In this document: piece by piece, positions 22,099 through 64,000 of the stretch | Numbering within the stretch: position 1 is the first letter of the stretch | How the letters are laid out: each line of letters starts with the position of its first letter | NCBI RefSeq assembly: GCF_035084215.1 | Contig: NC_090353.1 | Coordinates: 7,440,001-7,504,000, forward strand | DNA length: 64,000 nucleotides | Direction of reading: 5' to 3' | DNA from: Heptranchias perlo | Taxonomy: Eukaryota | Translations under genes and position numbers: made by a program | Notes under the pieces: model-generated | What the model was told of the DNA's origin: nothing | The model's database searches: none | The model's input: only the letters and a program-made list of their open reading frames with translations

Positions 22099-22144
22099 CT
22101 CCGTTACTGCAAGTAGACTAATCATCTCCTCCAACACCAACCCG

Positions 22145-23190: not shown

Positions 23191-24092
23191 GTGCTATGGA
23201 GGCAAAACCTGCTCACTGATGCTCAGTTGGTTTTACAACAGAACCAGTCAGCATCAAACCTCATCACAGCCTCAATCCCAACATGGACACAAGAGCTGAA
23301 TGCCAGAAGTGAGGTGAGAATATCTGCGCTCTGTGTCAAGGCAACATTCCACCGAGTATGGCACCAATGAAGTCAATGGGGGGGGGGGGGGGGGTCAAGG
23401 AATGGGAGTCATACCGGATGCAAAGGAAGAAGGTTGTGGTTGTCGGATGCCCCAGGACATCATTGAAGGAACTCCTGGGGTAAGAATTCTCAGCCAAGCC
23501 ATCTTCAGCTGCTTCTTCAATGACCTTCCCTCTGTCATGTGACCATGAGTGTGGTTGTTCACTGATGATTCGACAGTGTTTAACTCTTTTCACAACTCCT
23601 CCGATAATGAAGCAGCCCACACCAGCCTACAGCAGGACCTGGCTAACATCCAGGTTGAGCTGACAAGTGTCAGGTAAAATACCGACACGTAAACACCACG
23701 CAACGAGCATCTCAAACAAGTAAAAAGCCCAGTCATTTCACCATGACTTTCAATGGCACCACCATTGTGGGAGCACCATTGTCACAAGAACAGTGGTTCA
23801 AGGAGAAAGCCCATCAGCACCTTCTCAGGGCTACCAGGGATAAGCAATAAATGGGGCCTCGCCAGAGCTGTCCACATCTCAAGAAGAAATATTTTTAAAA
23901 TGCCAGTTTCTAGTCCACTGTGGTCAGTGGGTGATGCAGGTCTGCCTCCCAAGAACGAGATAGACTTCCTGTGTTACCTGTTGTGATGGAATAGAAGAAG
24001 GTTCTGCAGGAATGCTCTGTACACCAGAGGGAGATCGTTGCGATTTCTATTGTTTTTATTGTTATTGCCAACATATACATACCTGGATAAGC

Positions 24093-24182
24093 CATGGTAC
24101 AGATAAAGATCACATATACATACCATGGTACAGATAAAGATCACATATACACATCATGGTACAGATAAAGATCACATATAAA
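24093..24182. repeat. Three-copy 31-bp tandem repeat (CATGGTACAGATAAAGATCACATATACA..)
   Basis: Copies start at 24093, 24124 and 24155. Confidence 0.9.
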
Positions 24183-26354: not shown

Positions 26355-26810
26355 ATAACAAGAACTTACATTTCTATAACACCTTTAATATAGTAAAACA
26401 ACCCAAAACACTTCATCGGAGCAATTATCATAATTTGACAGAGTCACAAGATATTAAGACCAAAAGCTTGGTCAGAGGTAGGTTTTAGGGAGCATCTGAA
26501 AGGAGAGAGATTTAGAGGGAATTCCAGAGTTAGGCCTAGGCAGCTGAAGGCAGGGCCAATGGTGGAGTGAAGGAAATGGGGGATGTGCAAGAGGCCAGAA
26601 TTGGAGGAGTGCAGAGATCTGAGGGGGAATGGAGGCAGTTACAGAAATGGGGAAAGTTGGGTTGGGGGGGGGGGGGTTGTGAGATCATGAAGGGATTTGA
26701 AAACAAGGATGAGCATTTTAATATTGAGGTGTTGCCAGACACAGAAGAAATGTAGTTTAATGTGTGCAGGGGTGATTAGTGAACAGGACTTGATGCAAGT
26801 TAGGATTCAT
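26355..26810 (-). mobile_element. L2-like LINE 3' fragment
   Basis: acaagaacttacatttctataacacctttaatatagtaaaac..cctaggcagctgaaggcagggccaatggtggag; reverse match to 61490-61915. Confidence 0.72.
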
Positions 26811-40800: not shown

Positions 40801-43800
40801 ATTAAGTATTTCTTAAAGAAAATCTCCTGCATAATACAACCAGATGGCTGCAACTTGGATAAATACACTTCCCAGTCACAACTGTAGACAACAGGATTAA
40901 CATCCAGGACTGAGTCATAGAACAGTGAGTCAGTGAAGCTTGGACTAAGTCAGATAGAGACACACCTGGTCAGATTGCTGTTGTTGGTCTCCAGGTAGAC
41001 GGTGACCTGTCCAACCTCAATTCCTTTAACTGTGAAAGACTTTAAGCTTACAGACTTGGGCAGCATGATCTGAGAATGAGAAATTCTAAGTTAGTCTTCT
41101 ACATTTAAAAAGGGCAGGGGTCAAGGGAGGAATATAGTCAGTGCCAGTGAGGAGAGAGTAGAGTGCAGTTAATCTGAAAGTGTGCAGCTAGACTAACATA
41201 CGAGTTTAATGGAGTCTCTAATAAGACTGTTCACACAATGTCTAACAGAAGTGTTTAATTCAATGCTTGTCCCAAATTTGCATCACAAGGGCTGTACAAA
41301 GCCCAAGGCCTCACAGTTGAGCTCTTCATTCCAACCACAAGCCAAGTCAGTTTATAGTCAAGTCGTTAGAATAAAGTCTCAAAAGGAACACTGTCCAGAA
41401 GGAGGGTCCATTTATGTAGCACCTTTAATGTAAAACATTAAAAGATGCAACACAAAAGGCATAAAAATCAGAAATAAAATGGACATTAAGGCAACAAAGG
41501 GAGAGAGGTGGATTTTACAATGGTAAGGCAAAGGGAATTGGAAGGAGGATGTAGGGCTGGAGGATGTTAGAGATCAGGAGGTGCAAATCCACAAAAGGAA
41601 TTTAAACTTACAATTTTAAAATTGAATGCATTATGATCAGCAAGGACAGGAGTGATGGGTGAGTAGGACTTGATGCAGGAAAGGATATTGGCAGCAGCGT
41701 TTTGATGAGCTGAAGTATATGGAGCATGTAAGATGGGAGGGAATTAGAATAGCAGAGTCTGTAGGTCACTAAGACATTGATGCAGGTTCCAGCAGATAGG
41801 TTAAGGTAGAAGTAGGCAGTCTGTGATGGAAAGGATTGTGGGGCCAGAAGCTAATCTCAGGGTCAAACAGAATGCCAAGCATGCAAACAGTCTGGTTCAA
41901 CTGACAGTGGCTGGGGAGGATGGAATCAGTGACAAAGGTATAGAGATATTGGTAGGGGCCAAAGACAATGGCTTTGGTCTTCCTGATGTTTAACTGGAGA
42001 AAATTATGGCTCATCTAAGACTACATCAGCCAAGCAGCCTAATAAGAGGCAGAGAGGAGTTGAAAGAGGTAGAGCTGGGTGATGTCAGCATACTTGTGGA
42101 AGCTGACCCCATGCCCAAGGATGATGCAAAGGGCAGCAGGTTAATGCCACATTGGAGAAGGCCAGTTTAAAATTACACTGGCACAAACCATCCCAATAGT
42201 GTAGGAAAGTGTTTTTAATAAGTCCAGTAGGGAAGGTGAGCAACAGGGCAAACTTGTGATGGAGCAGATGTAGCAAGGGGAGGAAAATTCTGCTTAGGAT
42301 TCAGAACAGAGTCCTCACCAACAGAAGAGATTTCTCCCCTGTGTGCAAACAAAATGGACTACAGCTTATGACTGAAAAGGAACTGACCTTTGAAAACAAA
42401 TAAAACCCGACAGCAGTGAAAGGGACAGACCATGTGATCAATATAGCTGCACAAAGCCAAACTCTTCCAAGGATTGTTTTCTCTGAATGAGGAAGAATCC
42501 CAGGCATTGTGCTGGCTGCCAAAGCCCTGGGAAATGAATTTCCTCAGCAGTTCTCCTGCTCTGCCACTATAGCTCCACCAGAGACCCTGTTAACATGTAT
42601 GTGGGGTTTCCCACCAAAGTCCAAGCCACAACAGTGGAGCAGGAGAAGCCCAGAGGAAAATTACCCCCATGGTATTCAGACCTCCTGGAAGGAAGCACTG
42701 ACCAGCCCCAAGGAACTCCTTTCATAGCTGAAGGGCTGGGGGAGGGAAAGGCTGTGAGAAGAGCTGAGGGAGGAGAATATCTGGGCAAATACAGAAACAT
42801 GCCATTAGGCCAGTCAAGTCCATGCCAGCTTTCTGCAAGAGCAATCCAGCTAGTCCTACCCCCCTGACCTATCCGATTCAATAGTAACTGATAAGGGAAT
42901 TGGATCTGGGTCAACATCCTGGAACTTCCTTCCTAACAGCACTGTGGGAGAACCTTCACCACACGGACTGCAGTGGTTCAAGAAGGTGGTTCAAGAAGGT
43001 GGCTCACCACCACCTTCAAGGGCAATAAATGCTGGCTTCACCAGTAATGCCCACATCCCATGAATGAATAAAACAAATTTGAAGGGAAAAAATTCACAGG
43101 GCTATGGGGAAAGAGCAGAGAAATGGGACTAATTGGATAGCTTTCAAAAGAGCCAGTAGAGGCATGATGGGCTGAATGGCCTCCTCCTGTGCTGTACTTA
43201 TGATGAAATTCCACATGGATAAATCTCTTCCACTAATACACTAAACAGTCTCATGATATATCCCATCAATCATTACTAAATTACAAAAAGTCCTTCTGGG
43301 CCAGGCCTCCAAGTTTATTAGAAGTGTATCTGCAGTCCACCCATCTCTGACTGGAAATGGGCAGCAACCAGTGGACCCAGATTCATAGAAGGAACACCAG
43401 TCAGACAGACTTGGATGGGATCTGAATCCTATGGTCCTAAAGCTCTGACCCATTTGAAAAAGCTTCAATTGTTAAACATGAAAAGGTTTGGCTCCAACAT
43501 TCTCAGAATGAAGTTTCCTACATCAGAATTCCACCACCCTGTCTGTGGCTCTGGTAGTTTATACAGGTCTGAAAAATGTGTTACTTACTTGCTCAGGGAG
43601 TTGAACAATACAAGTTGGTTTGGATGAGAAGGTCACATTGAATGTAATCACTACAGTCTCCTGCAGGGGTGCACTGGGAGAAAAAACAGAAATCAAACTA
43701 TTGCCTTCTATCAAGAATGACTCAGTTACCAGAAGTACACTAGATGCTAGCCACTTCTACCACGTGCAGGAACGAACAGTGGCCATTATTTTTACAATGC

Positions 43801-46800
43801 CTAATCTAAGCCACTTAATCCCAGGTCTCCTTGGCTTTGATTAGCCAAGTGCCACCTCACAACAGGACCTACCTCAGAGCAATTCTGATCTTCTGAATGC
43901 TGTGGACTCCCAGGCTAACAACTTCTGGCACCATCAGTGACTCATAGGCTTCTGAAAAACACAGCAAGTGAGTATTCTGCCCACTCTAGTGTGGGATTGC
44001 AAGTGCACACAAATGTAAAACCTGAGCTTATATTTAAAAATGTATCATAGGAACAGGAGTAGGCCATTCACCCCCTCGAGCCTGTGCCACCATTCAATTA
44101 GATCATGGCTGATCTGTATCTCAAATCCATTTACCTGCCTTCTTTCCATTTCTAAAAAAAGTCTTAGTCTTGAAAATTTCTGTTGACCCAGGAACCACAG
44201 CCGTTTGACAGAGAGTTCCAGTTTTCTATTACCTTTCAGTGTTGAGAAGTTGGGTTCAAATCTAGCCCAAGTTGATGGGATAGAGTCCCCTCTGTCTGTG
44301 GGGGTCCTATGAGTGGAGTTTGGGCAATCTTAATCCAGTTTGTAGTGGGAATTAGCTTTACTATTAATTGGTTAAATTAGACAGGTCAAAGGATGGAAAT
44401 GGGGAAGGACAGAAGCAAGTTATTGAAGAGTAGGAGGTGTTTTAATAAACCTCTCTAATCACAGCTGCAACACCATCTGCTGACGTGGTGAAAACTTGTT
44501 AAGAAAAGGTAAAAATGAAATAACCCTCAACTTCTTGCTTTATCATGGATCCGTGATTTATAAATCTTCCAATCGCTAGCTTCCAAGCATTCAAGCCATT
44601 TGTGAACATATGAAAATTGACAGACTGGAGAAAAATCTGCTGGTCCATCAAGCCTGCCCCACAGAACTAACACAAGCATTTGAGTAGGCATCCATTCCCA
44701 GTCAATCTCCTGTGAGAGAGGCAAACACAAACCCAAGGCCAATCAGGGAGAAAAAACATCTTGGAAATTCCTCTCCAATCCCCTTAGGCGATTCAAACTA
44801 ATTCAGATCACATTGTGTATAGCACCCAATATTTTACCAACTTTTTAAAATGAGACATCATCATCATCATCTTCCCAATCAGGAACTGGTCCAACACTCA
44901 CTATATGAGCCGGTAACTTGTTCAATAGGTCTATTATCCTCTGGGATAGAAGAGCCATCTAACATATATTCTAGCCCTACTCTTACACAGCTTATCACAT
45001 GATCTCTGGTCATCCCCAACCTATCTAGTTGAAATAGCCTCAAGGGGAACATAATCAAGCTCTTGAACAATTTTGTATACGACCATTAAATCAATATTTC
45101 AGTCTTCTGTACGGTTGACAATGTCCACACTTTGATGCTTAATTCAAATAATTAAACAATTTAAAATGATAATGCAAATCAGAAGTAGATTAGAATTTTT
45201 CAAATTTGTAAAAAAAAAATTAGTTTTTGGTATTTCTGCAGTTTATGCTCCATTTGCACCCTTGTCTTTAAAGGTCAGCCTCCTGAGCATTTGTTTATAT
45301 TTCAATTATTAGATTGAAAGACAAAACTGTTCCATCTTATCCAGAACTGTAAAACCAGAGGACACGGTCTGCTCTTGAAAAGGGGCAAATTCAAAACTAA
45401 TCTGCGGAATCATTATTTCAATGAGCGAGTGGTCAATCTAGGGAACAGACTCTCTAGGGAAATGCTGGAAGCAGTTAGTGTTGATTCATTCTCATTGAGC
45501 GGGAGTTGTCTGTTCAGCCCCAAGCCTGTTCCACCATTCAATTAGATCATGGTTGATCTGTATTTTCACTCCATTTGCCCACCTTGGTTCCCTAACCCTT
45601 GCCTAACAAAAATCCATCAATCTCAGTTTTGAAATTGTCAATTGACCCCCAGCCTCAGCTTTCTGGAGGAAGTGTACCAGATTTCCACTACCCTTTTCTG
45701 ACATCACCCCTGAACAGCCTGGCTCTAAATAAGATTATGCCCCCTTGTTCTGGACTCTCCACTAGAGGAAATAGTTTCCCCTCTACCTACCCTATCAAAT
45801 CTTTTAATCATCTTAAGCACCTCACATTAGATCATCCCTTAATCTTCTATACTCAAAGGGAATACAAGCCTAGTCTATGCAACCTGTCATATTTAACCCC
45901 AGTATCATTCTGCTGAATCTGTGCTGCACCCCCTCCAAAGACCAATATATCCTTCCCGAGGAGCCCAAAACCTAATAGTACTCCAGGTGGGGTCTAACCA
46001 GAGCTTTCTACAACATAACTTCCACCCCTTGATAAAACCTAACATTCCATTAGCCTTTTAAATTATTTTTTGTACCTGTTCACTAGCTTCGAGTGATTTC
46101 TGTACAGGGACCCCTATGGATCACTGCTCCGCCACAATTCCTAGCTTCTCACCATTTGGAAAAACATTCTTAGGAGCAACAGGTTTTTAAAAAAAATTAG
46201 CTCATGGGATGTGGGCGTCGCTGGCGAGGCCGGCATTTATTGCCCATCCCTAATTGCCTTCGAGAAGGTGGTGGTGAGCCGCCTTCTTGAACCGCTGCAG
46301 TCCGTGTGGTGAAGGTTCTCCCACAGTGCTGTTAGGAAGGGAGTTTCAGGATTTTAACCCAGCGACGATGAAGGAATGGCGATATATTTCCAAGTCGGGA
46401 TGGTGTGTGACTTGGAGGGGAACGTGCAGGTGGTGTTGTTCCCATGTGCCTGCTGCTCTTGTCCTTCTAAGTGGTAGAGGTCGCGGGTTTGGGAGGTGCT
46501 GTTGAAGAAGCCTCGGCGAGTTGCTGCAGTGCATCCTGTGGATGGTACACACTGCAGCCACTGTGCGCCAGTGGTGAAGGGAGTGAATGTTTAGGGTGGT
46601 GGATGAGGTGCCAATCAAGCGGGCTGCTTTATCTTGGATGGTGTCGAGCTTAGAGTGTTGTTGGAGCAGCACTCATCCAAGCAAGTGGAGAGTATTCCAT
46701 CACACTCCTGATTTGTAGATGGTGGAAAGGCTTTGGGGAGTCAGGAGGTGAGTCACTCACTACAGAATACCCAGCCTCTGACCTGCTCTCGTAGCCACAG

Positions 46801-47807
46801 TATTTATATGGCTGGTCCAGTTACGTTTCTGGTCAATGGTGACCCCCAGGATGTTGATGGTGGGGGAATTCAGCGATGGTAATGCTGTTGAATGTCAAGG
46901 GGAGGTGGTTAGATTCTCTCTTGTTGGAGACGGTCATTGTCTGGCACGAATGTTACTTGCCACTTATGAGCGAAAGCCTGGATGTTGTCCAGGCCTTGCT
47001 GCATGTGGGCTCAGACTGCTTCATTATTTGAGGAGTTGCGAATGGAACTGAACACTCTGCAATCAGCAGCGAACATCCCCATAGGTGACTTTAGACCTAT
47101 GGTTCCCAAACTCTCCCACCATTGGGGGTTTTCCCCTCACCTCATGTCTGGGTCTGTTGTACACTAATGAGAGATTAATAGCCATGATTAGTCAACAGCA
47201 TCATCATTGTATTATGTGGCTACCAGATAGATGGTAAACTGAATCGTCTTTCATCTAGCAATTCATACATTCCTAACTGGTGCTCAATTGCTCCTCGAAA
47301 AACCCTCCTTGTTCCAGTAGTTCACAACTTCCTGCCTTAATATCAGATTCCCATAGTTCCATAAGTCAGAGGCTTCCTTCAGAGCCAATACCAACCCCCA
47401 CTACCAAGTTTGCTTTGGGTGGATGGGTTGTAGGAAGTGGTTCAAGTCACACTTCTGTAATGCTATGAAGTTCCCATTTATTCCACAGACCACACTAACT
47501 GTGCAAAGCTAAACTTGGTGCAAGCAAATGCTATACACAGCTTCACAGTGAACACCATCACTGACCACTTTCAGCAAAGGCAAGTCCAATATTTAAAAAG
47601 GGAGATACAATGCTGTAATATTTCGATCGGTGCTGATGCAGCAAAGGAAGTGTTCAATGTTGAGGAAATTGAACAAAGGATGATCACTTGGTTAACTTTC
47701 ACATCCATGTTGCCTTCATTACCCATTTTCTTCCCCATGAACTTACCACATTGCAGGGAGATGATCAGATTGTAAATGAGAACCAAGAGGAACACAGCAA
47801 GCTTCAT
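28860..47807 (-). CDS. CTNS: Cystinosin, lysosomal cystine/H+ symporter (PQ-loop family); 10 coding exons, 376 aa
   Basis: Coding exons 47807-47747 (61 nt, [20 protein letters not shown]), 43951-43873 (79), 43673-43589 (85), 41069-40966 (104), 36095-35958 (138), 34357-34258 (100), 32653-32534 (120), 31645-31475 (171), 30086-29969 (118), 29014-28860 (155). Sizes match the human CTNS series 61/79/85/104/132/100/120/171/118 except one +6 nt exon. Motifs [68 protein letters not shown]. Confidence 0.97.
30988..31382 (-). mobile_element. Near full-length tRNA-derived DeuSINE (SacSINE1/AmnSINE1-like) in a CTNS intron
   Basis: Minus strand begins gtgacagctgtggttcagtggg..tgggttcaagtctccactcc (A/B-box-like), then a Deu-domain-like gatgagatgttaaac..gtggatgaaacagtgccatgg and tail aaaggtgctatataaatgaaag. 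Partial copies at ~130-345, ~5900-6036, ~22410-22565, ~24960-25030 and 61119-61276. Confidence 0.75.
36915..38070 (-). mobile_element. CR1 LINE 3' fragment in a CTNS intron
   Basis: Near-identical to 11850-12900; [19 protein letters not shown]. Shorter related tails at ~33190-33530 and ~34400-34600. Confidence 0.85.
46190..47085 (-). mobile_element. Family-B non-LTR retrotransposon 3' part
   Basis: [44 protein letters not shown]; reverse match to 50950-51815. Confidence 0.85.
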
Positions 47808-49899
47808 ATCTCCAGTTTTAGACCTGCAGAAGAAAAACACCAAGAGTAAAACTAGTTTCCCCAAACTAAACCAAATCAGTTAGAAGAGATGGTAATACAC
47901 TGGGGGTTAAGAGACACCAAGTGGCCAATCAGGATAGGTTCGACCCCCAACTGAAATCTACAGTTAAGATGGCAGCATAGAGATGATTCAGCATTTCAGT
48001 TCAACGCACCTGGTCACATAACACCAGAGCCTTGAAATATGGCTTGTCATTTGAGCTACAAAAATACACATCAGGTTTATTCAATATCCAGGGAGCTTGA
48101 ACTAAAACCCATATACTAGCATTGAAATTACAGCCACGTCAGAGTGAAATTGCACATGGACCACAGTGCAGCATTTGGCCTATACACTGCAGTGAGCTCA
48201 ATTTCATAGGCAATATTTACAGTGGATACATAAACCTTTACAAGTTTTCAAGTACACACTTTGCCATGTACCCACTATCCAGAAATCATGAAGCATTCAT
48301 CTCAGTCAGGATGATGTACCTGATAGCTGTGGTGTTGGAGGAGGGTGGGAAGGGGGTGAAAATAAATGTGGAGAACAATAGCTTGGACTCTCATCTTGTT
48401 CCTTTTTTGTGGTCAGAAGGTGGGAAACACTGGAAAGGCCATATTTATTGCATTTTCCTCATAGTCCTGAGGTGGCAATGTGGGGTCTTCTCAAATTGAG
48501 ATGGTGCTCCCATAAATGGCATTAGGTAGGGAATTCTAAGACTTTGACCCACTGATCAAGGACCAGCAGTACATGTCCAAGTCAAGGCAGTGCAAGACTT
48601 GGAGCCAATGGTTTTCCCCAAGACATTGTTGCTTTGGGCTTAGAAGTCATGGGACTAGGTGGTACTGCCAAAGCAAGTTTGGCAAGTTCCTGTACATCAT
48701 ACATACTGCAACCCCAGGGCCCTGGTGGTGGGGATGGATAGAGTCCTGCTGTGTCCTGGATGGTGTTGAGCTTAGAGTTGTTGTTGTAGCTACACCCATC
48801 CAGGTGAGAATTCAGTCTCACTCCTGGTTATTGGAAAGATGGGGACACTTGATAGCTCTATTAATCACTTTGCTGATGATTACAGGGCCAATACAGTAAT
48901 TGGCCAATTAAATCCAGACATGCCTGGAGAACTGTCCAATGAGAAGTCAGGTGAATGCCAATATCATAGGTGCACTGGAACAGTTTGGCAAGTGAGGCAG
49001 CTACTGCTGTTGTACATGTCTTCAGCACTACAGCTAGGATGTAGTCAGGGCCCATAACCTTGGATGTGCCCAATATCTTAAGACCCCATTCCATTTCTAT
49101 TGATTCTAGGTAAAGGATTCAATCTCAGCTGCTTTTTGTTGAAGGTGACTGTTGGTATTTTTAAATCCAACTTGCAAATAAAACCAAGACAGAGTTCCAA
49201 TAAAGGAAGGATGCCATCATTTTGTAATTCCTTCATCAAAGTACTGAGTCACATCACTATTCAGACACAGTTCACACACCTACTAGAGATGAAAGATTAA
49301 AATGGATGCTCAGCTCCATTACAAAAACTCCCAGAAACTGATGTTCTACCAGAAAAATGAAGGCTCTTAGCAGAAGGTAAAGATGAGAATCCCACAGAAC
49401 CCAGGCATTGCTTTGTTGGGCACATTAGACTTTTGGGGCATCGTGCTTTGTTAATCTATTGGCAGCTAAAAAAAACTAACCATGAACTTAGAGGAGTCCA
49501 GGCAGATAATAGATGAGTGGCCTGGTTCATCACCAATAGCCCCCATGGACCAGGGTTTTCCAAGACCAGGTCATCTTGGTTTGTTCTGGTGATGATTGCC
49601 TTTTTAAAAAAGGGCACTGAGCAAGGCATTAACACAAGGAACTGAAGTCATAGTATTGAGTCAGTATAACTAACCAACATTAGTCAATGCAACTCAATGA
49701 AATGCCAAGCAGCCTCAAGGAAATCAAAGTTAGACCACTTAATGAGGCTGGTATAAGGAGTAAGATAAAAACCCATCCCCATTCATTGCCTGATCAACTG
49801 ATGTACTGAAGAATCACCATCATCTCCAGTATTTGAGCTGTGCCAGGGAACCACCAATAGCTCACCTTCTTTAAATTTCAAAATATACTTTATTTCATA

Positions 49900-51821
49900 G
49901 AATCAGATCAAAGCTCTGCAGTCCTGCCACATCCAGTCGTGAATGGTGGTGGACAGTTAAACAACTAACGGGAGGAGGAGGCTCTGTAAACATCCCCATC
50001 CTCAATGATGGCAGAGTCCAGCACGTGAGTGCAAAAGACAAGGCTGAAGTGTTTGCAACCATCTTCAGCCAGAAGTGCCAAGTGGATGATCCATCTCTGC
50101 CTCCTCCTGATATCCCCACCATCACTGAAGCCAGTCTTCAGCCAATTCGATTCACTCCACGTGATCAAGAAATGGCTGAGTGCACTGGATACAACAAAGG
50201 CTACGGGCCAACAGCATCCTGGCTGTAGTGCTGAAGTCTCATGCTCCAGAACTAGCCACGCCTCTAGCCAAGCTGTTCCAGTACAGCTACAACACTGGCA
50301 TCTACCCGACAATGTGGAAAATTGCCCAGGTATGTCCTGTCCACAAAAAGCAGGACAAATCCAATCCGGCCAATTACCGCCCCATCAGTCTACTCTCAAT
50401 CATCAGCAAAGTGATGAAGGTGTTGTCGACAGTGCTATCAAGCGGCACTTACTCACCAATAACCTGCTCACTGATGCTCAGTTTGGGTTCTGCCAGGATC
50501 ACTCAGCTCTAGTCCTCATTACAGCCTTGGTCCAGGCATGGATAAAAGAGCTGAATTCCAGAGGTGAGGAGAGAGTGACTGCCCTTGACATCAAGGCATC
50601 ATTTGACCGAGTGTGGCACCAAGGAGCCCTAGTAAAATTGAAGTCAATGGGAATCAGGGGGAAAACTCTAGTGGCTAGAGTCATACCTAGCACAAAGGAA
50701 GATAGTAGTGGTTGTTGGAGGCCAATCATCTCAGCTCCAGGAGTTCCTCAGGGAAGTGTCCTAGGCCCAACCACCTTCAAGGGCAATAAATGTTGGCCTC
50801 ACCAGTGACGCCCACATCCCATGAACGAATAATAAAAAAAAAGCCATCTTCAGCTGCTTCATCAATGACCTTCCCTCCAGCATAAGGTCAGAAATGGGGG
50901 ATGGTCGCTGATGATTGCAGTGTTCATTATCTGAGGGGTTGCGAATGGAACTGAAGCAGTCCATGCCTGCATGCAGCAAGACCTGGACAACATCCAGGCT
51001 TGGGCTGATAAGTGGCAAGTAACATGCAGGCCAAACAAGTGCCAGGCAATGACCATCTCCAACAAGAGTCTAACCACCTCCAGTACAATTTAACCAAAAC
51101 ACTACAGATCATACTCAAAGCATTACCATTGCCGAATCCCCCAACATCAACATCCTGGGGGTCACCATTGACCAGAAAAATAACTGGACTAGCCACAAAT
51201 ACTGTGGCTACAAGAGCAGGTCAGAGGCTGGGTATTCTGCAGCAAGTGACTCAGCTCCTGACTCCCAAAGCCTTTCCACCATCTACAAGGCACAAGTCAG
51301 GAGTGTGATGGAATACTCTCCACTTGTCTGGATGAGTGCAGCTCCAACAACACTCAAGAAGCTCGACACCATCCAGGACAAAGCAGCCCGCTTGATTGGC
51401 ACCTCATCCATCACCCTAAACATTCACTCCCTTCACACCAGCACACTGTGGCTGCAGTGTGTACCATCCACAGGATGCACTGCAGCAACTCGCCAAGGCT
51501 TCTTCGACAGCACCTTTCAAACCCGCGACCTCTACCACCTAGAAGGACAAGAGCAGCAGGTACATGGGAACACCACCACTTGGACGTTCCCCTCCAAGTC
51601 ACACACCATCCAGACTTGGAAATATATCGCCGTTCCTTCATTGTCACTGGGTCAAAATCCTGGAACTCCCTTCTAACAGCACTGTGGGAGAACAGTCAGC
51701 ACGCAGACTGCAGTGGTTCAAGGCAGCGGCTCACCATCACTTTCTCAAGGGCAATTAGGGATGGGCAATAAATGCTGGCCTCACCAGCGAAACCCACATC
51801 CCATGAACGAATAAAAAAAAT
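49900..51821 (+). mobile_element. Family-B non-LTR retrotransposon, ~1.9 kb 5'-truncated RT copy with poly(A) tail
   Basis: SAKDKAEVFATIFSQKC, NYRPISLLSIISKVM, ALDIKASFDRVWH, GVPQGSVLGP, MEYSPLVWMSAA; ends catgaacgaataaaaaaaa; frameshifted. Confidence 0.88.
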
Positions 51822-51824
51822 TAA

Positions 51825-53050
51825 GGATACACAGTTCAATGTAAATATCACAATTCAAAACCAGTACAATTCAACCAAAACATTACAGATCATACACAAA
51901 GCAATCTACAACAATTCAAATACAGTATTTCTTATGACTCATTGTGTACAAGGCCTTACCCCATAGAGCCTTTGCTTAGGTCACACCTCAGTGTCCCACA
52001 GCATGTACGCCTGGACCTTGGAGTATGCCAGTCGGCAAAACTCAGTCATGGACAGCTCCTTCAGCTGGAAGGCCAGCATGTTTTAGGTGGAACAAAGGGC
52101 CTCCTTCACAGAGTTGATATCTGTCTCTGTGTCCATCCCAGGGAACAGCCCTTAGAGCACTGTGTCCTGTGTTACCGAGCTGTTTGAGATGAACCAGGAC
52201 AGATATCAATGCATCTCTCTCCACACCTTCTGCCCAAAGGGGCAGCCCATCAGGAGGTGGACGACAGTCTTCTCCCTGCCACAGGCTCAAGGGTACCTCA
52301 CAGTGGTACTGTGGTTCCATGTGGGTTGGAGGGGCCGCACAGAGAGGGCCTTTCTCACCACCATTCAGGCTACATCCTGGTGCCTGTTGGTCAGTTCATG
52401 ACAAAACATTCTGCCAAATGGCATCAACCATCTGGTCAGGGAAGAAACCAGTCAAGTCCACCCTCTCCATTCCTTACAGGATTCAGAACATTTCATGTCA
52501 ACCGTTGTTTGACAGCCTTGTGGTCAAAAGGGTTCCTCCTCAGGAAGAAAGAGAAAGGAAACAGTCCAACTAGACAGGACATTGTGCACCTGCTCAGCCA
52601 GCATGGGTGTTAGACAGGTAGAAACTCAGCTTGTAGAGACACTTGGTGTTTGTGTACTGGGGCTCTACACATATCCTGAGGTAGCCACATACAAAGGTGG
52701 CCATCAGGATCAGAGTGGCATTGGGGACACTCTTCCCCACTTTGTCTGGGGGCTTGTACATGGTGGCCCTACAGACAAAGTGGAAGGTGGCTCAGGTGAC
52801 TAACAGCAGAGTTATGGGGAATGGGCCAGACCCTGGCCACAGGGCAACACCACAAGTATCTCACACCTTATCACCAGGTTCCTGCCAGTTATGGAGGGGG
52901 GAAATTATCCCACCCACATACCAAACTTCTGTTCGGCCTTGGCAATCCACTCCCAGTTCTTTGTGCAAGCCAGGGCCCCCCAAACTAGATCCCCAGTAGT
53001 CAGACTTGAGTGAAGGGCACATGGGACCAAGCCTCCCACCTGCTCCCCTG
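51825..53050 (-). mobile_element. Tx1/L1-like LINE ORF2 3' fragment
   Basis: Minus-strand translation around 51960-52330 gives a CCHC-knuckle-like GEKTVVHLLMGCPFGQKVWREMH..LFPGM.TETDIN, consistent with a Tx1-type C-terminus. Confidence 0.65.
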
Positions 53051-53535
53051 GCACATGAAGATTACACCAAAACCATTACAGGTATAGTTACTTCTAGAAA
53101 CATTACAGCATCTCCCTTGCCACACCCACTTGTAAAATAAGGCAACATTCAATTCATTAAAAACAGAAAGGCACCAAAGTCACAGGTTATGGCCAGCAGT
53201 AGCTAAAAGAACAAAGATTAAGGTTTTGTGTGTGAACTGTAACAAGGAGGGACCAAACCTACTTTCAAAACAGGACTGAATCACTGCAGATACCCACACA
53301 GAAGCTGAGTAATTGAGCTGAATGGAGAACCACATTAGACCACATCAATTAAACGGCTCTAAAACTACCCAGGAACATCTTAACAAGATGAAAAAAAGAT
53401 ACTTACAGAAATTTAACAAAGAAACACCAGCCACACAAATGAGTCCAGACTCCTTATCCAAATAACAATTTCCCTGATAATAAAAACCTGACCTCCGAAT
53501 GGCCATTGTCCCAACTTTAATAGTCAATTAGCTTA

Positions 53536-53570
53536 TGACGTCACCTATGCCCCTCCCCCAGGGGCGGGGC
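53536..53570. promoter_or_regulatory. Candidate promoter: perfect CRE/ATF site plus GC box (possible CTNS promoter)
   Basis: TGACGTCA 53536-53543 and GGGGCGGGGC 53561-53570 in a repeat-free, locally CpG-retaining stretch; minus-strand GTAAGT donor starting at 53406. Confidence 0.4.
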
Positions 53571-55409
53571 CTGGAGGGTTGAGTACCAATGGGATGACTG
53601 GGCTCATCACTGGTTGGGTAGTGGGGTCAATTACATTGGCCGCTTTGAGTGTAGCGGCCGCTGGGGAACGGAGCAGCGGTGAACCTATGGGTCAGTGTCC
53701 GAGTGATGGGACAACTATTGTCCAACCATGTCCAGAGACACCGCTCCCAGCCCAGTCTGTGCCGGCAGATGACACAGACCCGTGGATCCAACTCTGCTCG
53801 CCCACAAACTCAACATGTTAAGAGCTGGTGTTGAGTCAGTAGCGGCATTAGACACGAGATAATTGAAGATAATTACAGATGAGAAAGAATACCAATTAAT
53901 CCAGAAAGACCCTACAGTCTCCATATTGCAGAACAAATTGCTTCTGAATTGATTCCTGGATTTTGGCCTCCTCTACCTGGGAGTCCATTTCAGGTATTGA
54001 TCGCTCTGTGTGAACTTTTAAAAATTAATTCTTGGGATATGGGCGTCACTGGCAAGGCCAGCATTTATTTCCCATTCCTTGTTGCCCTTGAGACAGTGGT
54101 GGTGGGCCTTCTATTTGAACCCCCTGCAGTCCATGTGGTGAAGGTGCTCCCAGAATGCTGTCAGGTGGGGAGTTCCAGGACGGTGAAGGAACGGCCGATA
54201 TATGTCCAGGTCAGGATGGTGTGTGACTTGGTGGGGGACTTGGAGGTGATGGTGTTCCCATGCACGTTCCCCCAATCAGTCTTTTACCAGTTTGAACCTG
54301 TGTCTTCTCACCCACTAACCTCCAGATAAACATTGGGAAGCCCGAAGCTATTGTCCCCACCATAAACTCCGCTCCCTCTGCATCCCCTCCTTCCATGGCC
54401 ACTGGTCACAGGCTGTACCATTTTCCACAGTTTTGGTCTCGTGTTTGACCCTGTTAAGCCCATATTCTCTCTATCACAAGACATCACCGACCTCTCTCTC
54501 TACCTAAACCCACCTGCTGCTGAAACTATCATACGGGCCTTCATCACCTCCAGATTCAATTACTCTGATTCTCCCCTTACCAGCCTTCCATCCTTCACCC
54601 TCCATAAACTCCAACTCATCCAAACTCTGCTGCTCGTCTCCTATCCCACACCAAGTCCTACTCAACCATCACCCCTGTCATCACTAATCCACATTGGCTT
54701 CTGTTCCCCCAATGCCTCAACTTTGAAATTCTCATCCTTGTCTTTAAATCCCTCCATGCTCTCACCCCTCTCTAACCTTCTCCAGCCTACAACCCACCAA
54801 CTCCCTGGGAACCTTCTGTTCTCTCTCTGGCCTCTTTTGCATCCCTTCTTCCTTCATTCCTCTATTGGGGCCATGACTTCAGCTGCATTACTGTGAATTA
54901 CTTTGAGACAATTTTTCCATGTTAAAGGGTCTATAGAAATACAAGTCGTTGATAATGTTCCAAGATGCTTTAGAGGGGCGTGGAATATAGTAGATAATGG
55001 AGTAAAAGGCCAGACACTGAGCCATGGTGAGCGTTAGGAGAGGTGACCAAAAGCTTTGGTCGAAAAGATGTCATTTGAGAAGATTTTTAAAGGTGGAAAG
55101 AGAAGATGCAAAGGGGTTTGGAAAGAGAGCTCCAGTTCAGGGGCTGAGGCAACTGAAGGCTCTGCCACCAATGGTGGAGCAAAGGGAAGGGGTGCAGCAG
55201 CCCAGAGTCAGGATCGAAGGGTGTTGGAGGGGATGTGAGGCTGAAGGAGATTCCTGATATAGGCTGAGGTGAGATTGTGAAGGTGAGGATAAGGATCTTA
55301 AATTCAATATATCGGGGACTGGGATCCAGCGTAAGTCAGCAAGAATGGGGGGTGGAGGGAGGGGTGAGTGACCAGGAATTTATGTGGGACAGAATATAGA
55401 CACCTGAAT

Positions 55410-56660
55410 TATAACAAATCTTCTGCAGTTTTTTGAGGAGGTAACTAGTCGAATAGATAGGGGAGAACCAGTGGATGTAGTGTACTAGGATTTTCAGAAG
55501 GCTTTTGATCAGGTCCCACACAAGAGGTTAGTGTGCAAAATTAAAGCACATGGGATTGGGAGGAATATACTGGCATGGATTGAGAATTGGTCGACAGACA
55601 GGAAACAGAGTGGGAATAAACGGGTCTTTTTCCAGGTGGCAGGCAGTGACTGTTGGGGTACCGCAGGGATCAGTGGTTGGGCCCCAGTTATTCACAATAT
55701 ATATCAATGATTTGGATGAGGGAACTAAATGTAACATTTCCAAGATTGCAGATGACACAAAGCTGGGGTGGAATGTGAGGAGGATGCAAAGAGGCTCCAG
55801 TGTGATTTAGACAAGTTGGGTGAGTTGGCAAGAACATGGCAGATACATGGATAAATGTGAGGTTATCCACTTTGGTTGTAAAAACAGAAAGACAAATTAT
55901 TATCTGAATGGTGATAGATTGGGAAAAGGGGAGGTGCAATGAGACCTGGGTGTCCTTGTACACCAGTCGCTGAAAGCGGGCATTCAGGTGCAGCAAGCAG
56001 TTAGGAAGGCGAATGGTATGTTGGCCTTCATTGCAAGAGGATTTGAGTACAGGAACAGGGATGTCTTACTGCAGTTGTACAGGGCCTTGGTGAGATTACA
56101 TCTGGAGTATTGTGTGCAGTTTTTGTCTCCTTATCTGAGGAAGGATGTCCTTGCCATGGAGGGAGTGCAACAAAGGTTTACCAGACTGATTCCAGGGATG
56201 GCAGGACTGACGTATGAGGAGAGATTGGGTCGACTAGGCCTATATTCACGAGAGTTTAGAAGAATGAGAGGTGATCTCATCGAAACATAAAATTCTAACA
56301 GGACTAGACAGACTAGATGCAGGGAGGATGTTCCTGATGGCTGGGGAGTCCAGAACCAGGGGTCACAGTCTCAGGATACGGGGTATGCCATTTAGAACCG
56401 AGATGAGGAGAAATTTCTTCACTCAGAGTGTGGTGAACCTGTGGAATTCTCTACCACAGAAGGCAGTGGAGGCCAAGTCATTAGATGTATTCAAGAAGGA
56501 GATCGATATATTTCTTAATGCTAAAGGGATCAAGGGATATGGGGAAAAAGTGGGAACAGGGTACTGAGTTAGGCGATCAACCATGATCATTTTGAATGGT
56601 GGAGCAGACCCGAAGGGCCTAATGGCCTACTCTTGCTCCTATTTTCTATGATTCTGTGAT
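55410..56660 (+). mobile_element. CR1 LINE RT plus 3' UTR
   Basis: [60 protein letters not shown]; tail ttctatgattctgtgattc. A second CR1 3' end follows at ~56830-57050. Confidence 0.9.
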
Positions 56661-58146
56661 TCTCAGGCACTGACCCCTTCCGTGTAACATCTGCGCTATC
56701 AGACTGCTTGCCTGACATCCAATTTTGGAGGAGCTGTAACTTCCACCAGCCAAATATTAGGAAGACTAATGCCCTTGCCACAAACTCCAATAATGCTACC
56801 ATTGGCTCCATCCCTGGGTAAAGAACCAGACGAGGAGATGAGGAGAATTGTTTTTACACAGCGAGTTGTTATGATCTGGAATGCACTGCCTGAAAGGGTG
56901 GTGGAAGCAGATTCAATAGTAACTTTCAAAAGGGAATTGGATATACACTGGAAAATTTGCAGGAGAATGGGACTAATTGGATAGCTCTTTCAACGAGCCG
57001 GCACAGGCAAGATGGGCTGAATGGCCTCCTTCTGTGCTGTATGATTCTGATTCATCCTCCTCCTCGGTCACGATCTCGGCCTGAATCAGACTGTTCACAT
57101 TTTGGTGTTATGCTCAACCCCAAACTGAGCTTCTGACCCCATATCCTCTCCATCGTAAAGACTGCCGACATCCACCTCCAGAACATCACTCACCCTCCAC
57201 ATCTACCTCAGCCCATCTGAATCCCTGATATTCATGCCTTTATCATTTCCACATTAGATTACTCCAGTGCTCTCTCGGCTCACCTCCCACCCTCTGTAAA
57301 CTTGAGCTCATCTAAAATGTTGCTGCCCGAATCCTCTCCCACACCATCACCCCCACCCTTGCTGATCTACATTGGTTTACAGTCCCTCAATGTCTGAAAT
57401 TTAAAATTCTCATCCTCGTGTTTAAATCCTTTAATGGCCTCGCCCCTCCCTATCTCTGTAACCTCCTCCAACCTTACAAACCCCCCTCTCCGAACTCTCC
57501 ATTCCTCTGCCTCGGGCCTCTTGTACATCCTCCCCACCCTTCACCCACCATTAACAGCCGTGCATTCAGGCACCGAGATCCCACTTTGTGAAATTCCCTC
57601 CATAGATCCCTCCACCTCCTTCTCCTCCTTTACAACCCACCTCTTTGACTAAGCTTTTGGTCGTCCTTCTTTATCTCTCCTTCTTTGGCTCACTGGGATG
57701 TTTTTCTGCGTTGAAGGTGCAGTAAAAACGCTGTTGTTGTCATCGACATCATCGCCACTGAAATTCAAATCCCGATTTGCCATGTTCTAGCAAATTCTGT
57801 CTGATATGTTATCCCTAGAATCAGTACATTAACTCAAACTCTGATTACATTGTGATTGAATACGATGCACCTTACAGTTGAATAGCTCCCCAACACTGCT
57901 TAGGCTTACACATGAAGACTGGCCATTTGAGCCTGGTTATGGAGTACCCCAGAATGTTGCGGCCTTCAGGAGAGGAAAGGAGTGGGGGGAACATCAGAAC
58001 AAAAACATCGAACGCACTTTGTTCTTTAAATAGTGTGGTGTTTTACCTCACTTTAAGTTGGGTGAGGTGAGGTGGTGTGTAATTTAACATGGGCTTACAG
58101 TGAAATGATCTGCAAATTAATAACAAAAGCTAACACTTCTCTTAAG

Positions 58147-58380
58147 AGTCTGATAACAGAAACTAAGAGAGAAGTGAAGGAGAAGTACGATGCATTGAGG
58201 AAACATATTGAAAATGAAGAGCGAGATGTTTTTCTGTGTCTGGATAAGGAGCAGAGCCGAGTAACAGCAGCGATCGACACACACATCCGCAAGCTGGAAA
58301 AGGAAATGAAATTCTTTGAGACGTGTTTGGTCAATCTCACCGACCTTTCACAGAAGAGTGAAAAGTTTGCATTTATACAG
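58147..58380 (+). CDS. Isolated TRIM-family-like coiled-coil exon (78 codons, phase 0-0); partner exons not identified
   Basis: cttctcttaag|AGTCTG...TTTATACAG|gtaatg, 234 nt open: SLITETKREVKEKYDALRKHIENEERDVFLCLDKEQSRVTAAIDTHIRKLEKEMKFFETCLVNLTDLSQKSEKFAFIQ. The size, phase and heptad pattern ending in F.Q resemble the 231/234-nt coiled-coil exon of TRIM16/25/39-like genes. No RING, B-box or SPRY exon was found in the window. Confidence 0.6.
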
Positions 58381-61118
58381 GTAATGTGTGGTTATATAGA
58401 TAATGTGTATTTATACAGGTAATGTGTGTTTATACAGATAATGTGTGGTTATATAGATAATGTGCATTTATACAGGTAATGTGTGGTTATATAGATAATG
58501 TGTGGTGATATATATAATGTGTATTTATACAGGTAATGTGTGGTTATATAGATAATGTGTATTTATACAGGTAATGTGTGGTTATATATATAATGTGTGG
58601 TTATACAGGTAATGTGTATTTATACAGGTAATGTGTGGTTATACAGATAATGTGTATTTATACAGGTAATGTGTGGTTATATATATAATGTGTGGTTATA
58701 CAGGTAATGTGTATTTATACAGGTAATGTGTGGTTATATATATAATGTGCATTTATACAGATAATATGTGGTTATACAGATAATGTGCATTTATACAGAT
58801 AATATGTGGTTATACAGGTAATGTGCATTTATACAGGTAATGTGTGGTTATACAGATAATGTGCATTTATACAGATAATGTGCATTTATACAGGTAATGT
58901 GTGGTTATATAGGTAATGTGTATTTATACAGGTAATGTGTGGTTATATATATAATGTGTGGTTATACAGGTAATGTGTATTTATACAGGTAATGTGTGGT
59001 TATATAGGTAATGTGTATTTATACAGGTAATGTGTGGTTATATATATAATGTGTGGTTATACAGGTAATGTGTATTTATACAGGTAATGTGTGGTTATAT
59101 AGATAATGTGCATTTATACAGGTAATGTGTGGTTATATATATAATGTGCATTTATACAGATAATATGTGGTTATACAGATAATGTGCATTTATACAGATA
59201 ATATGTGGTTATACAGGTAATGTGCATTTATACAGGTAATGTGTGGTTATACAGATAATGTGCATTTATACAGATAATATGTGGTTATACAGGTAATGTG
59301 CATTTATACAGGTAATGTGTGGTTATACAGGTAATGTGCATTTATACAGGTAATGTGTGGTTATACAGATAATGTGCATTTATACAGATAATATGTGGTT
59401 ATACAGGTAATGTGTGGTTATACAGGTAATGTGCATTTATACAGGTAATGTGTGGTTATACAGGTAATGTGTATTTATACAGGTAATGTGTATTTATACA
59501 GGTAATGTGTATTTATACAGGTAATGTGTGGTTATACAGGTAATGTGTATTTATACAGGTAATGTGTGGTTATATAGGTAATGTGTATTTATACAGGTAA
59601 TGTGTGGTTATATAGATAATGTGCATTTATACAGGTAATGTGTGGTTATATATATAATGTGCATTTATACAGATAATATGTGGTTATACAGATAATGTGC
59701 ATTTATACAGATAATATGTGGTTATACAGGTAATGTGCATTTATACAGGTAATGTGTATTTATACAGGTAATGTGTGGTTATACAGGTAATGTGTATTTA
59801 TACAGGTAATGTGTGGTTATATAGGTAATGTGTATTTATACAGGTAATGTGTGGTTATATAGATAATGTGCATTTATACAGGTAATGTGTGGTTATATAT
59901 ATAATGTGCATTTATACAGATAATATGTGGTTATACAGATAATGTGCATTTATACAGATAATATGTGGTTATACAGGTAATGTGCATTTATACAGGTAAT
60001 GTGTGGTTATACAGATAATGTGCATTTATACAGATAATATGTGGTTATACAGGTAATGTGTGGTTATACAGGTAATGTGCATTTATACAGGTAATGTGTG
60101 GTTATACAGGTAATGTGTATTTATACAGGTAATGTGTGGTTATACAGGTAATGTGTATTTATACAGGTAATGTGTGGTTATACAGGTAATGTGCATTTAT
60201 ACAGGTAATGTGTATTTATACAGGTAATGTGTGGTTATATAGATAATGTGTATTTATACAGGTAATGTGTGGTTATATAGATAATGTGCATTTATACAGG
60301 TAATGTGTGGTTATATATATAATGTGCATTTATACAGATAATATGTGGTTATACAGATAATGTGCATTTATACAGATAATATGTGGTTATACAGGTAATG
60401 TGCATTTATACAGGTAATGTGTGGTTATACAGATAATGTGCATTTATACAGATAATATGTGGTTATACAGGTAATGTGCATTTATACAGGTAATGTGTGG
60501 TTATACAGGTAATGTGTATTTATACAGGTAATGTGTGGTTATATAGGTAATGTGTATTTATACAGGTAATGTGTGGTTATATAGATAATGTGCATTTATA
60601 CAGGTAATGTGCATTTATACAGGTAATGTGTGTTTATACAGGTAATGTGCATTTATACAGATAATGTGTGGTTATATAGATAATGTGTATTTATACAGGT
60701 AATGTGTGGTTATATAGATAATGTGCATTTATACAGGTAATGTGTGGTTATATATATATATAATGTGCATTTATACAGGTAATGTGCGTTTATACAGGTA
60801 ATGTGTGGTTATACAGGTAATGTGTGGTTATTTAGATAATGTGCATTTATACAGGTAATGTGTGGTTATTTAGATAATGTGCATTTATACAGGTAATGTG
60901 CATTTATATAGGTAATGTGTGGTTATTTAGATAATGTGCATTTATATAGGTAATGTGCATTTATACAGGTAATGTGTGGTTATACAGGTAATGTGCATTT
61001 ATACAGGTAATGTGCATTTATATAGGTAATGTGTGGTTATACAGGTAATGTGTGGTTATTTAGATAATGTGCATTTATACAGGTAATGTGCATTTATACA
61101 GGTAATGTGTGGTTATAC
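58362..61118. repeat. 19-bp minisatellite, ~145 copies, consensus GTAATGTG(CAT/TAT/TGG)TTATACAG
   Basis: Period 19 verified directly (58381-58399, 58400-58418); starts in the last bases of the 58147-58380 exon. Confidence 0.97.
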
Positions 61119-61279
61119 CAACGCAGGGCCTCGGTTTAACATCTCATTTGAAAGACAGCCAACTCCCTCAGTATTTTACTGAAGTGTTGGCCTAGATTTT
61201 GTGCTTAAGTCTGGAGTGAGGCTTGAACTCACAACCTTCTGACTCCGAGGCAAGATTGCTACCAACTGAATCACAGAAA

Positions 61280-62410
61280 TACAGTTTACACGAGATGACG
61301 CAGATTACGTGAGATTGTACTGTGCATTTATACAGGTAATGTGTGTTTACATAGGTATCGTTTGTTTACACGTAATGCGAGATTATACATGTAATGTTTA
61401 TTTATAGAGGCAGCGTGCGGTTATACAGGCAAAGTGTGATTCGTCAGGTGATGTGTGCTTATATAGATAATTTGCCCATGTTACATTACGTTCATCCATC
61501 ACCCCACTGTGCTCACTGACCTACATTGACTCCCTGTCCAGGAACGCCTGGATTTTAAAATTCTCATCCTTGTTTTCAAATCCCTCCGTGGCCTCGCCCC
61601 TCCGTATCTCTGTAACCTCCTCCAGCCCTACAACCCTCAGAGTTCTCTGCGTTCTTGCGCATCCCCGATTTTAATCACTCCACCATTGGTGGCCGTGCCT
61701 TCAGCTGCCTAGGCCCTAAACTCTGGAATTCCCTCCCTAAACCTTTCCACCTCTCTTTTCCTTTAAGACACTCTCTAAAACCTATCTCTTTGACCAAGCC
61801 CTGTCCTAATATCTCCTTACGTGGCTCGGTGTCAAATTTTGTTTGATAATCGCTCCTGTGAAGCAGCTTGGGACGTTTTACTACGTTAAAGGCGCTATAT
61901 AAATACAAGTTATTGTTATACAGTTAACATAAGTTTATAATTTGCGTATATAGAGCTGATGTGTCTTTATATAGCTAATTTATGTGTGTAAGAGTAATGA
62001 CGGATTATACAGGTAATGTGCATTTATACAGAAAATACGAGATTATATAGATTATTTGTATTTATACAGGCAATGTGAGTTTATTCAAGTAATAAAAATT
62101 TAAAGAAGTAATGTGAGTTTATACAGGAAATGTCTGCTTATACAAGTAATGTACAGTTATACAGGCAGTTTGTATTTATACAGGTAACGTGAGTTTGACC
62201 AGGTAAGAGAAGTTTTACAGGTATCCTGTGTTTTTACAGGTAATGTGAGAATATTACAGCCAGTGTGAATTTATACATAAATTAGTTGATTCAGGTAATG
62301 TGAGTTTAAACAAGCAATGTCTGTTTAATCAGGTAATGTGACTTTATTCAGGCGATGTGTAGTTTAATCAGGTAATGCGTGTTTAATCAGGTAATTTTTA
62401 CTTTATATAG
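61280..62410. repeat. Degenerate (older) continuation of the 19-bp minisatellite, split by an L2 fragment (61490-61915)
   Basis: Diverged units such as tgtgcatttatacaggtaat, tttatacaggcaatgtgag and tttaatcaggtaatgtg. Confidence 0.8.
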
Positions 62411-62539
62411 GATCCACAATAACCTTTACTCCTGTTCAAGCAGTTGTTTATATTTCAGTTTGTACATTAAAAGATGTTAACATGTTCCTAGCAGAGTTGT
62501 TCACGCTGTCAGTGCCTTCGGAGACTGAGGCTAAGTAAG

Positions 62540-63200
62540 GAAGGTGTGTCAGAGATGGGCCAGAAAGACCTCCAGGCACAATAAAACATCCAAAGTCACT
62601 GCCACTGATGTTAAGGTGTCCACAGTCCTCAGGGTTCATGTACTGGTGATAGCCGTAGCGTCAGCCAGCTTGCTGTCCACAGATGCATTATTCATCATGG
62701 CCAACAACTTCACCATTTTCACCACTCATCAGCAACAGTAACACAGGGCAGCATAATTCCCCCGGTCTTCAGGCTTCCTAAAAGTCCATTTGGGCCCCTG
62801 TGTACAATGCAATGCTATTTATGAACCAGATAGGCCTCATTCCATCAATATGTGGCTGGTATGGAACCGCCAACCCATAATAACACAGGTGGGAGCTTGC
62901 TTCCCAAGTATCTCCCACAATGCCTTTTTATTGAGACAATCATCACTGCCACCTTTATTTGAAGGGGAGCGGAAGGAAGACTCTTGGAAGATCAAGGAGT
63001 GACCCATGGACAGAAGCAGAATGGAGGTACAACCAGAATGATGATCAATCACACCCTGAAGTAGTGTTTCAGATATCTCGAGATGTGAGTGATGCTGGCA
63101 AGACAACATTTATTCAACTCCATGGCTCAAGATTGTGTGTAACCAATCTCCAACCATCCTTAAGGTGTCAGGCCTCTATAACTGCAGTGTAAGCATTCAC
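62540..63200 (+). mobile_element. PIF/Harbinger DDE transposase relic
   Basis: Fragments STDALFIMANNF, HSINMWLVWNRQPIITQVGACFPSISHNAFLLRQSSLPPLFE and PWTEAEWRYN match the Harbinger/HARBI1 pattern HSINVQLVCD..ARFPGS.HDAFILRQS and P.TEAE..YN; catalytic Asp positions appear mutated. Confidence 0.72.
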
Positions 63201-63297
63201 AAGGGGTGACGCCACTGTGCCTATGACCCGTCCCAATGAGGGGTCCGCTGCCAATGCCACAGGAGTGGACACATGCACCATGGCCAACTACGGTCTA

Positions 63298-63678
63298 TAG
63301 GGTGGCCAACTCCAGCTGGACCATATTTCGGGAGGTTTCACCACATGACCTCCTGCCCCCTAAGGCCCCGCCCCCACGCTGCCACCATTGGTCGCCAGGC
63401 ATGTCAGTCAGTCAATAATCGTGGCTACAATACCCAAAATCCTCTGGTCAGCAAACCACTCTATCGGTTGTGTTGTTTTACCGAGCGCACGTGCACCATG
63501 GCCGCATTGCATCCTGGGAGCATTGCGGCCTGACCGTTTGTCGTGAGTCCGGCCAGAGGGAAACAGGAGAGGGAAACGCCCTGATGGTTCTTCTCCCGGG
63601 TGGCTCGCAGGAGTATCCGGGAGATTAATCTTTAATTCCGGGAAACTACAGGTCAGTCCTGGAGGGTTGGGAACCCTA
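63298..63678. mobile_element. Non-autonomous hAT (Blackjack-like) MITE, 381 bp
   Basis: Ends TAGGGTGGCCAAC and GTTGGGAACCCTA (imperfect TIRs resembling TAGGGTGACCA/TAGGGTTGCCA); flanks ACGGTCTA (63290-63297) and ACGGTGTT (63679-63686) give a 6/8 candidate 8-bp TSD. Confidence 0.65.
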
Positions 63679-64000
63679 ACGGTGTTGGTAACCGTTTATC
63701 CAATACTGCGTGAAGCCCGGTGGAAGACAGCTCTTCAGTCCTCCCAAGACCTTGAAGGGTGTTTTGTACGGACACAAGTGACGTATGAGGTTAATTCAGC
63801 TCAAACAGCAATCTCTGTCTGCGAGCAGGCCCTAGGGGATCTGAATCCCTAGATAGAGTAGCAGGACCCCCTGCCCAGTAGGTGCTGCCTCTGATCAGTG
63901 AACCCCACTCACTTCTCCTCACAAGTGCACTGTGGGTCGGCCCTGTGCTATCTCCTTAACTTCGCTATTTCCATCCTCTGTGCTGGTGCTTGGCTGATGT

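Follow-up and report, generated by a model that had tools for sequence, protein, structure and literature searches.

The stretch of Heptranchias perlo DNA analysed here (64,000 nt, "the window") carries, at 58147..58380 on the plus strand, a 234-bp copy of the coiled-coil exon (exon 3) of a TRIM25-like gene, with intact acceptor and donor. It is followed directly by a homogeneous, junction-derived 19-bp minisatellite at 58381..61118 on the same strand. In the first-pass annotation the exon had been described as TRIM-like, and this identity is supported by protein matches: of 13 matching protein records from cartilaginous fish, 10 are TRIM25-like, 2 are TRIM14-like and 1 is uncharacterised, and P0001 (536 aa, labelled Heptranchias perlo) matches the exon at 100%. 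The Pfam TRIM_CC profile also matches the exon (E=1.4e-4), though the match falls short of the curated cut-off. P0001 itself displays RING, B-box, PRY and SPRY domains above the cut-offs, together with a weaker coiled-coil match.

A genome search with exon 3 returned two 100% copies, that in the window and a minus-strand copy 200 kb away (G000:C32:7295555-7295788), with no differences between them over the 234 bases. P0001 maps in full to the second copy. There, six exons of 564, 96, 234, 23, 149 and 545 bp span G000:C32:7298487 to 7277811, and their translation is exactly P0001, with an intact 536-aa frame. Intron 3 of this intact gene is 11,364 nt long and is followed by the 23-nt exon 4. 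By contrast, a tblastn search with P0001 of the window and 60 kb downstream found exon 3 alone. A pattern search for exon 4 gave matches in the intact copy's surroundings only, and the copies of exon 1 (at least 1) and exon 6 (at least 1) found in the genome at 97% identity or above were both located there as well.

The two exon 3 copies belong to opposite arms of an inverted segmental duplication that extends over at least 66 kb. The window arm occupies 780..64000 and runs on to G000:C32:7506416; its partner is G000:C32:7358326-7286694, hereafter the other arm. Each arm also contains a PQ-loop gene, presumably cystinosin-like, placed head to head relative to the TRIM gene (on the minus strand at about 28900-47900 in the window), and its exon-bearing stretches are 86-99.7% identical between arms. 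The arms are surrounded and separated by a cluster of at least 7 near-identical trefoil-domain genes, which we take to be zona-pellucida-like and which occur in both orientations (window 1100-5700 and 17600-22200; G000:C32:7333000-7522000).

Two structural features separate the window copy of the TRIM gene from the intact one. Upstream, 5.3 kb of the other arm, comprising exons 1-2 and 4.1 kb preceding the start codon, is replaced in the window by a 1.24-kb LINE fragment (55412..56650, plus strand; alignment breaks at 55419/56662 versus G000:C32:7302617/7297279), in which Pfam RVT_1 matches with E=2.5e-5, below the cut-off. Downstream, the window arm breaks off 2.5 kb before exon 4 would be reached, so that exons 4-6 lie beyond its end. 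The window copy is therefore without exons 1, 2, 4, 5 and 6; its exon 3 is an orphan, and the full protein cannot come from it. The orphan exon is likely to be silent or nearly so.

Divergence between the arms is a mosaic in which tracts at 0-1% are interspersed with others at 5-15%, with many insertions, and it steps sharply across the array, from 0.5% just upstream to about 10% just downstream. This pattern suggests patchy gene conversion. The flanks of exon 3 differ at 8 of 1506 bases, and this local 0.5% divergence is sufficient to explain the perfect identity of the exon (P=0.29 for 0 differences in 234), so selection on the orphan exon need not be invoked.

Inverted, neighbouring, near-identical copies are also the familiar appearance of haplotype duplication in an assembly. 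The window arm might accordingly be a mis-assembled second haplotype, in which case the two array lengths described below (35 and 144 units) would be alleles of one VNTR and the window copy a null allele. Stretches of 99-100% identity in the inverted neighbouring copies fit such an artefact. However, the sequence separating the arms, like that at either arm's end, is free of N gaps (344 kb contain a single gap, at 7240885), many tracts are 5-15% divergent with many insertions, and the multi-copy trefoil-domain cluster, with genes in both orientations, lies between the arms. These features argue for a true paralogous arm, and we regard a haplotype artefact as very unlikely.

The 19-bp array at the exon 3 donor

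The array at 58381-61118 was parsed into 144 units, of which 142 are 19 bp long, one is 23 bp and the last is truncated to 17 bp; its TRF score of 3377 is far above chance. The unit, GTAATGTGCATTTATACAG, consists of intron bases 1-7 followed by the final 12 bases of exon 58147-58380, as had been proposed in the first-pass annotation. The first unit spans the real exon-intron boundary, which in the P0001 gene model is the donor of exon 3, and the unit copies this junction, in agreement with the proposed origin by amplification of an exon-intron junction. The array thus belongs with junction-spanning minisatellites of the F7 or mirage type, in which units of 10-100 bp are arranged in tandem.

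The earlier count of about 145 tandem splice donors stands as regards the position and unit number of the array, which has 144 units, although not all of these are donors. By class, the 144 junctions comprise 81 CAG|GT, 8 TAG|GT, 44 YAG|AT and 11 TAT|AT, so that AG|GT is kept at 89 of 144 when the real donor is counted. Downstream of the real donor, 88 of 143 junctions have AG|GT and 55 are without GT. The reading frame of exon 3 runs into the array and, as previously noted, stops in the third unit. Each forward frame of the array contains 55-58 stops, with a longest open stretch of 27 codons, and a coding role for the array was rejected on this basis.

A genome-wide search for a two-unit pattern gave 80 matches, all confined to the window and other-arm loci (the reversed control gave 0). 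The 19-bp unit is thus local, and a dispersed minisatellite family was rejected.

The young array ends at a non-repeat insertion (61119..61275), which aligns with the other arm, is common to both arms and is presumably SINE-like. Older, decayed units of the 19-mer persist distally on the plus strand at 61327..61471 (TRF, 7.7 copies, 60% matches) and 62005..62395 (20.7 copies, 64% matches), each with a counterpart in the other arm. Between them, an interspersed repeat (61489..61917) that matches four other nearby places at 80-83% splits the old array. T is found at position +2 in 19 of 29 decayed units, and preferential retention of GT is not evident.

In the intact gene, the identical exon 3 is followed by only 35 units of the 19-bp array, as against 144 in the window. 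To our analysis this paralog pair, with such different unit numbers after a base-identical exon, is new. The donor sequence is reiterated within the intron in both arrays. AG|GT is found at 22 of 35 junctions of the intact gene when the real donor is counted and at 21 of 34 downstream of it, a share that does not differ from the 88 of 143 in the orphan (Fisher p=1); this equality gives no sign of tuning. The first two units are alike in both arrays, such that the +19 junction is dead and the +38 junction live. Dead junctions lean towards the 5' end (of the first 12 junctions, 7 are dead in one array and 6 in the other), although the units are not independent of one another.

The decayed distal units and the two insertions are common to both arms, and the array must therefore predate the duplication or the last exchange between the arms. 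Each young array also contains private unit variants, which indicate that the interiors have been without recent exchange. After the arms last shared sequence, the exon-proximal block turned over separately in each arm.

The location of the long array in the dead copy, with the shorter array in the live gene, might be taken to mean that array expansion inactivated the window gene, as had been considered in the first-pass annotation. The structure of the arm contradicts this. Five of the six exons are absent for structural reasons, namely the 5.3-kb replacement of exons 1-2 and the end of the arm; since the arm stops before exon 4, a complete copy may never have existed here. The 35-unit gene, for its part, is intact. 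Inactivation by the array is thus extremely unlikely.

Splicing potential of the array

Energies of pairing with U1 were computed using U1 taken from the Heptranchias perlo genome. In the window array, the 81 CAG|GT junctions pair at -9.1 kcal/mol, which equals the real donor, and the TAG|GT junctions at -7.5 kcal/mol, whereas the AT variants reach only -0.1 to -2.4 kcal/mol. The five real donors of the intact gene range from -7.0 to -14.0 kcal/mol. Judged by sequence, the pseudo-donors of the array would be competent splice sites. In the intact gene, where the 35 units are followed by a downstream acceptor (in the window exon 3 stands alone), use of any of the 21 downstream AG|GT donors is predicted to introduce a premature stop at a distance of 153-776 nt upstream of the final junction (21/21). 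Stops lying farther than 50-55 nt before the last junction usually mark a transcript for nonsense-mediated decay (NMD), and by this rule the predicted transcripts from all 21 alternative donors would be NMD targets.

It had been proposed that array length and the share of GT-bearing units act as a heritable dial on productive splicing versus NMD. At the window copy this does not hold, as five of the six exons are absent and there is nothing to tune; no productive mRNA could arise there on which a dial, or a recursive-splicing ratchet, might act. A length dial could be envisaged in the intact paralog instead, where the 35-unit array would lower the amount of productive TRIM25-like mRNA, either because the +38 donor is used or because the 23-nt exon 4 is skipped, and where the length of the array could be reset by exchange with the 144-unit arm. 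The U1 pairing energy of -9.1 kcal/mol shared by 81 window sites and the real donor, the predicted NMD-type stops at 21/21 alternative donors, and the mosaic divergence between the arms (0.5% upstream and about 10% downstream of the array), which is as expected from gene conversion, are all in its favour. There are also precedents, in the use of pseudo-sites in 6-16 and CBS (as summarised in PMC1557585) and in the length-linked skipping of exon 19 in ABCA7 (as described in PMC5954066). However, retention of one repeat unit in ABCA7 is independent of length according to the same account of that gene (PMC5954066), exon 4 of the shark gene lies 10.7 kb past the array, and the private unit variants speak against recent exchange of the young array interiors. 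Such a dial, which would in any case not reside at the window copy, seems to us unlikely.

A recursive-splicing ratchet, or a sink for U1 snRNP, had also been suggested. A working recursive site needs a 3' splice site with a pyrimidine tract in addition to a donor. The YAG|GT juxtaposition is present at 88 downstream sites of the window array, with U1 pairing equal to or near that of the real donor, but the pyrimidine tract is poor at all of them: the pyrimidine fraction is 0.41-0.53, with runs of 2-3 bases, at 88/88 internal YAG sites, compared with 0.65-0.76 and runs of 3-8 bases at the five real acceptors of the gene. An upstream AG lies at 19 nt for 82 of 88 sites, which is not discriminating, as real exon 3 is likewise preceded by an AG, at 17 nt. 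Known vertebrate recursive splice sites, which have the YAG|GT juxtaposition, are described as isolated, conserved and located in very long introns (PMC5126111). The array sites, in contrast, are 19 nt apart at the 5' end of a modest intron (11,364 nt in the intact gene), 55 of 143 (38%) are without GT, and there is no sign of conservation. As for a sink, it requires transcription, and the orphan is missing what lies upstream of exon 1. One locus could moreover not drain U1, which is far too abundant. Both proposals are exceedingly improbable.

Four of 11 listed sequencing runs were compared with a reference made up of the intact gene's exons 1-3 and 50 bases of the array. In two runs from a related organism, belonging to one study and guessed to be RNA, one contig each covers exon 3 (with 9 other letters). 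These contigs leave the genome sequence at both ends of exon 3, and at the donor end they do so one base into the intron. That base is a G, which is also the first base of exon 4, and the contigs continue for 26 or 382 letters. They fit splicing at the true donor but, since that organism may or may not carry the array, they say nothing firm about competition from one. No RNA run was listed as containing exons 1-2, and in two of the three Heptranchias perlo runs listed exon 3 had no coverage; neither result has a bearing on expression.

Junction-derived repeats elsewhere

Minisatellites that reiterate a splice junction have been described in several genes. In human F7, the first unit of the 37-bp VNTR of intron 7 (IVS7) spans the exon-intron boundary, so that identical donors are reiterated, and only the most upstream donor is reported to be used (Borensztajn et al. 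2006, PMC1557585). The F7 gene is functional and its array counts 5-9 units; here, the orphan exon precedes 144 units and the working paralog has 35. The window array differs further from F7 in that 38% of its units are dead variants. Other junction-reiterating minisatellites are those in 6-16 (IFI6) intron 2, CBS intron 13, LMNB2 and PDGFA, with proximal pseudo-sites being used in 6-16 and CBS, as summarised in PMC1557585. These arrays have 10-25 units, whereas the shark arrays have 35 and 144.

In human ABCA7, the 25-bp unit of the intron 18 VNTR includes the donor and is repeated from 12 to about 427 times (De Roeck et al. 2018, PMC5954066); the 144 units found here are thus not a record. 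In the account given there, retention of one unit leads to a frameshift and NMD independently of length, while skipping of exon 19 rises with VNTR length. ABCA7, however, is a working gene with a polymorphic series of alleles, whereas the long shark array is without a next exon.

The amphioxus "mirages" are tandem copies of exon-intron boundaries in which many, though not all, units have AG/GT, and they are described as unstable in length without disturbing splicing (Ebner et al., PMC3087553). They differ from the shark arrays in belonging to another lineage, in having longer units, located in globin genes, and in involving no duplicated orphan exon. Paralogs in segmental duplications are also reported to differ in the number of internal tandem repeats, including repeats at exon-intron boundaries (De Grassi and Ciccarelli 2009, PMC2812944). 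The repeats described there form new introns in expressed primate genes, whereas the shark window paralog is a fragment. Literature searches on shark TRIM25 minisatellites, and on VNTRs with UPF3A and splicing, found no paper. The 144-unit array is a large member of the published class that includes F7, CBS, 6-16, ABCA7 and the mirages.

Nine other paralogs of exon 3 were found. Three of them, L005, L007 and L010 (G000:C13 near 61.54, 61.57 and 61.62 Mb), carry a 20-bp minisatellite of 8, 15 and 2 units, respectively, that starts at the same donor and resembles its junction; a repeat at the exon 3 donor is absent in five of the nine. The consensus matches the 16 junction bases at 10, 10 and 11 positions (L007 requires a 4-base offset), and in a shuffle test this gave p<=0.0005 in register and <=0.007 over any rotation. 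As the three loci share one unit, a single origin is indicated. All 25 of these units have GC in place of GT, with U1 pairing of about -2 kcal/mol. The GC units may have been disarmed by selection, or they may have been amplified from an already mutated copy. This further array derived from the junction, in which three paralogs carry donors disarmed by GC, is likewise new here.

Array turnover and its possible consequences

We think it probable that the window array represents the neutral expansion of a junction minisatellite behind a stranded exon 3, and that the first donor is dominant in the working paralog. A slippage duplication of 19 bp, at a TG microhomology of 2 bases, may have seeded the array, after which array lengths would have been set by ordinary minisatellite turnover. 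In the intact gene, the first donor would win by exon definition or by 5'-to-3' scanning, as in F7. The dead second junction might help the first donor, and any leak to the +38 donor would be cleared by NMD. The six exons of the other arm encode P0001 exactly despite the 21 downstream AG|GT sites.

Some observations do not sit easily with neutrality. The longer array in the dead copy is also what would be expected if length were selected against in the intact gene, although this is a single pair. In both arms the junction immediately downstream of the real donor is dead, and on C13 25/25 units have GC; pseudo-donors could thus be selected against. Furthermore, the similar VNTR in ABCA7 is described as altering splicing with length (PMC5954066). 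One could combine these points and propose that the exon 3 donor repeatedly seeds junction minisatellites that selection then polices: the array would be kept short in the intact gene (35 units, second junction dead), changed from GT to GC in the three C13 paralogs and left to reach 144 units in the orphan, from which conversion could return a long array and lower output via NMD. We consider this broader scenario rather improbable.

The array provides no evidence of a new regulatory mechanism; it is probably a large and harmless case of a repeat type familiar from human genes. The same exon followed by 35 or 144 units, together with the GC paralogs, nevertheless constitutes material for minigene tests of 5' splice-site choice, and the comparison is suited to asking whether arrays of pseudo-donors are under weak selection.

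Unrelated minisatellites were observed at further loci. Among the other exon 3 paralogs, L006 has an 18-bp GC-rich minisatellite 23-185 bases past the exon 3 donor, and L008 has a 38-bp minisatellite of 22 or more copies in intron 3, starting 529 bases past the donor. An 8.4-kb minisatellite of 204 copies of 41 bp is found at L025-L026 (G000:C32:7553303-7561695), an example of a very long array in this region whose unit contains no splice site.
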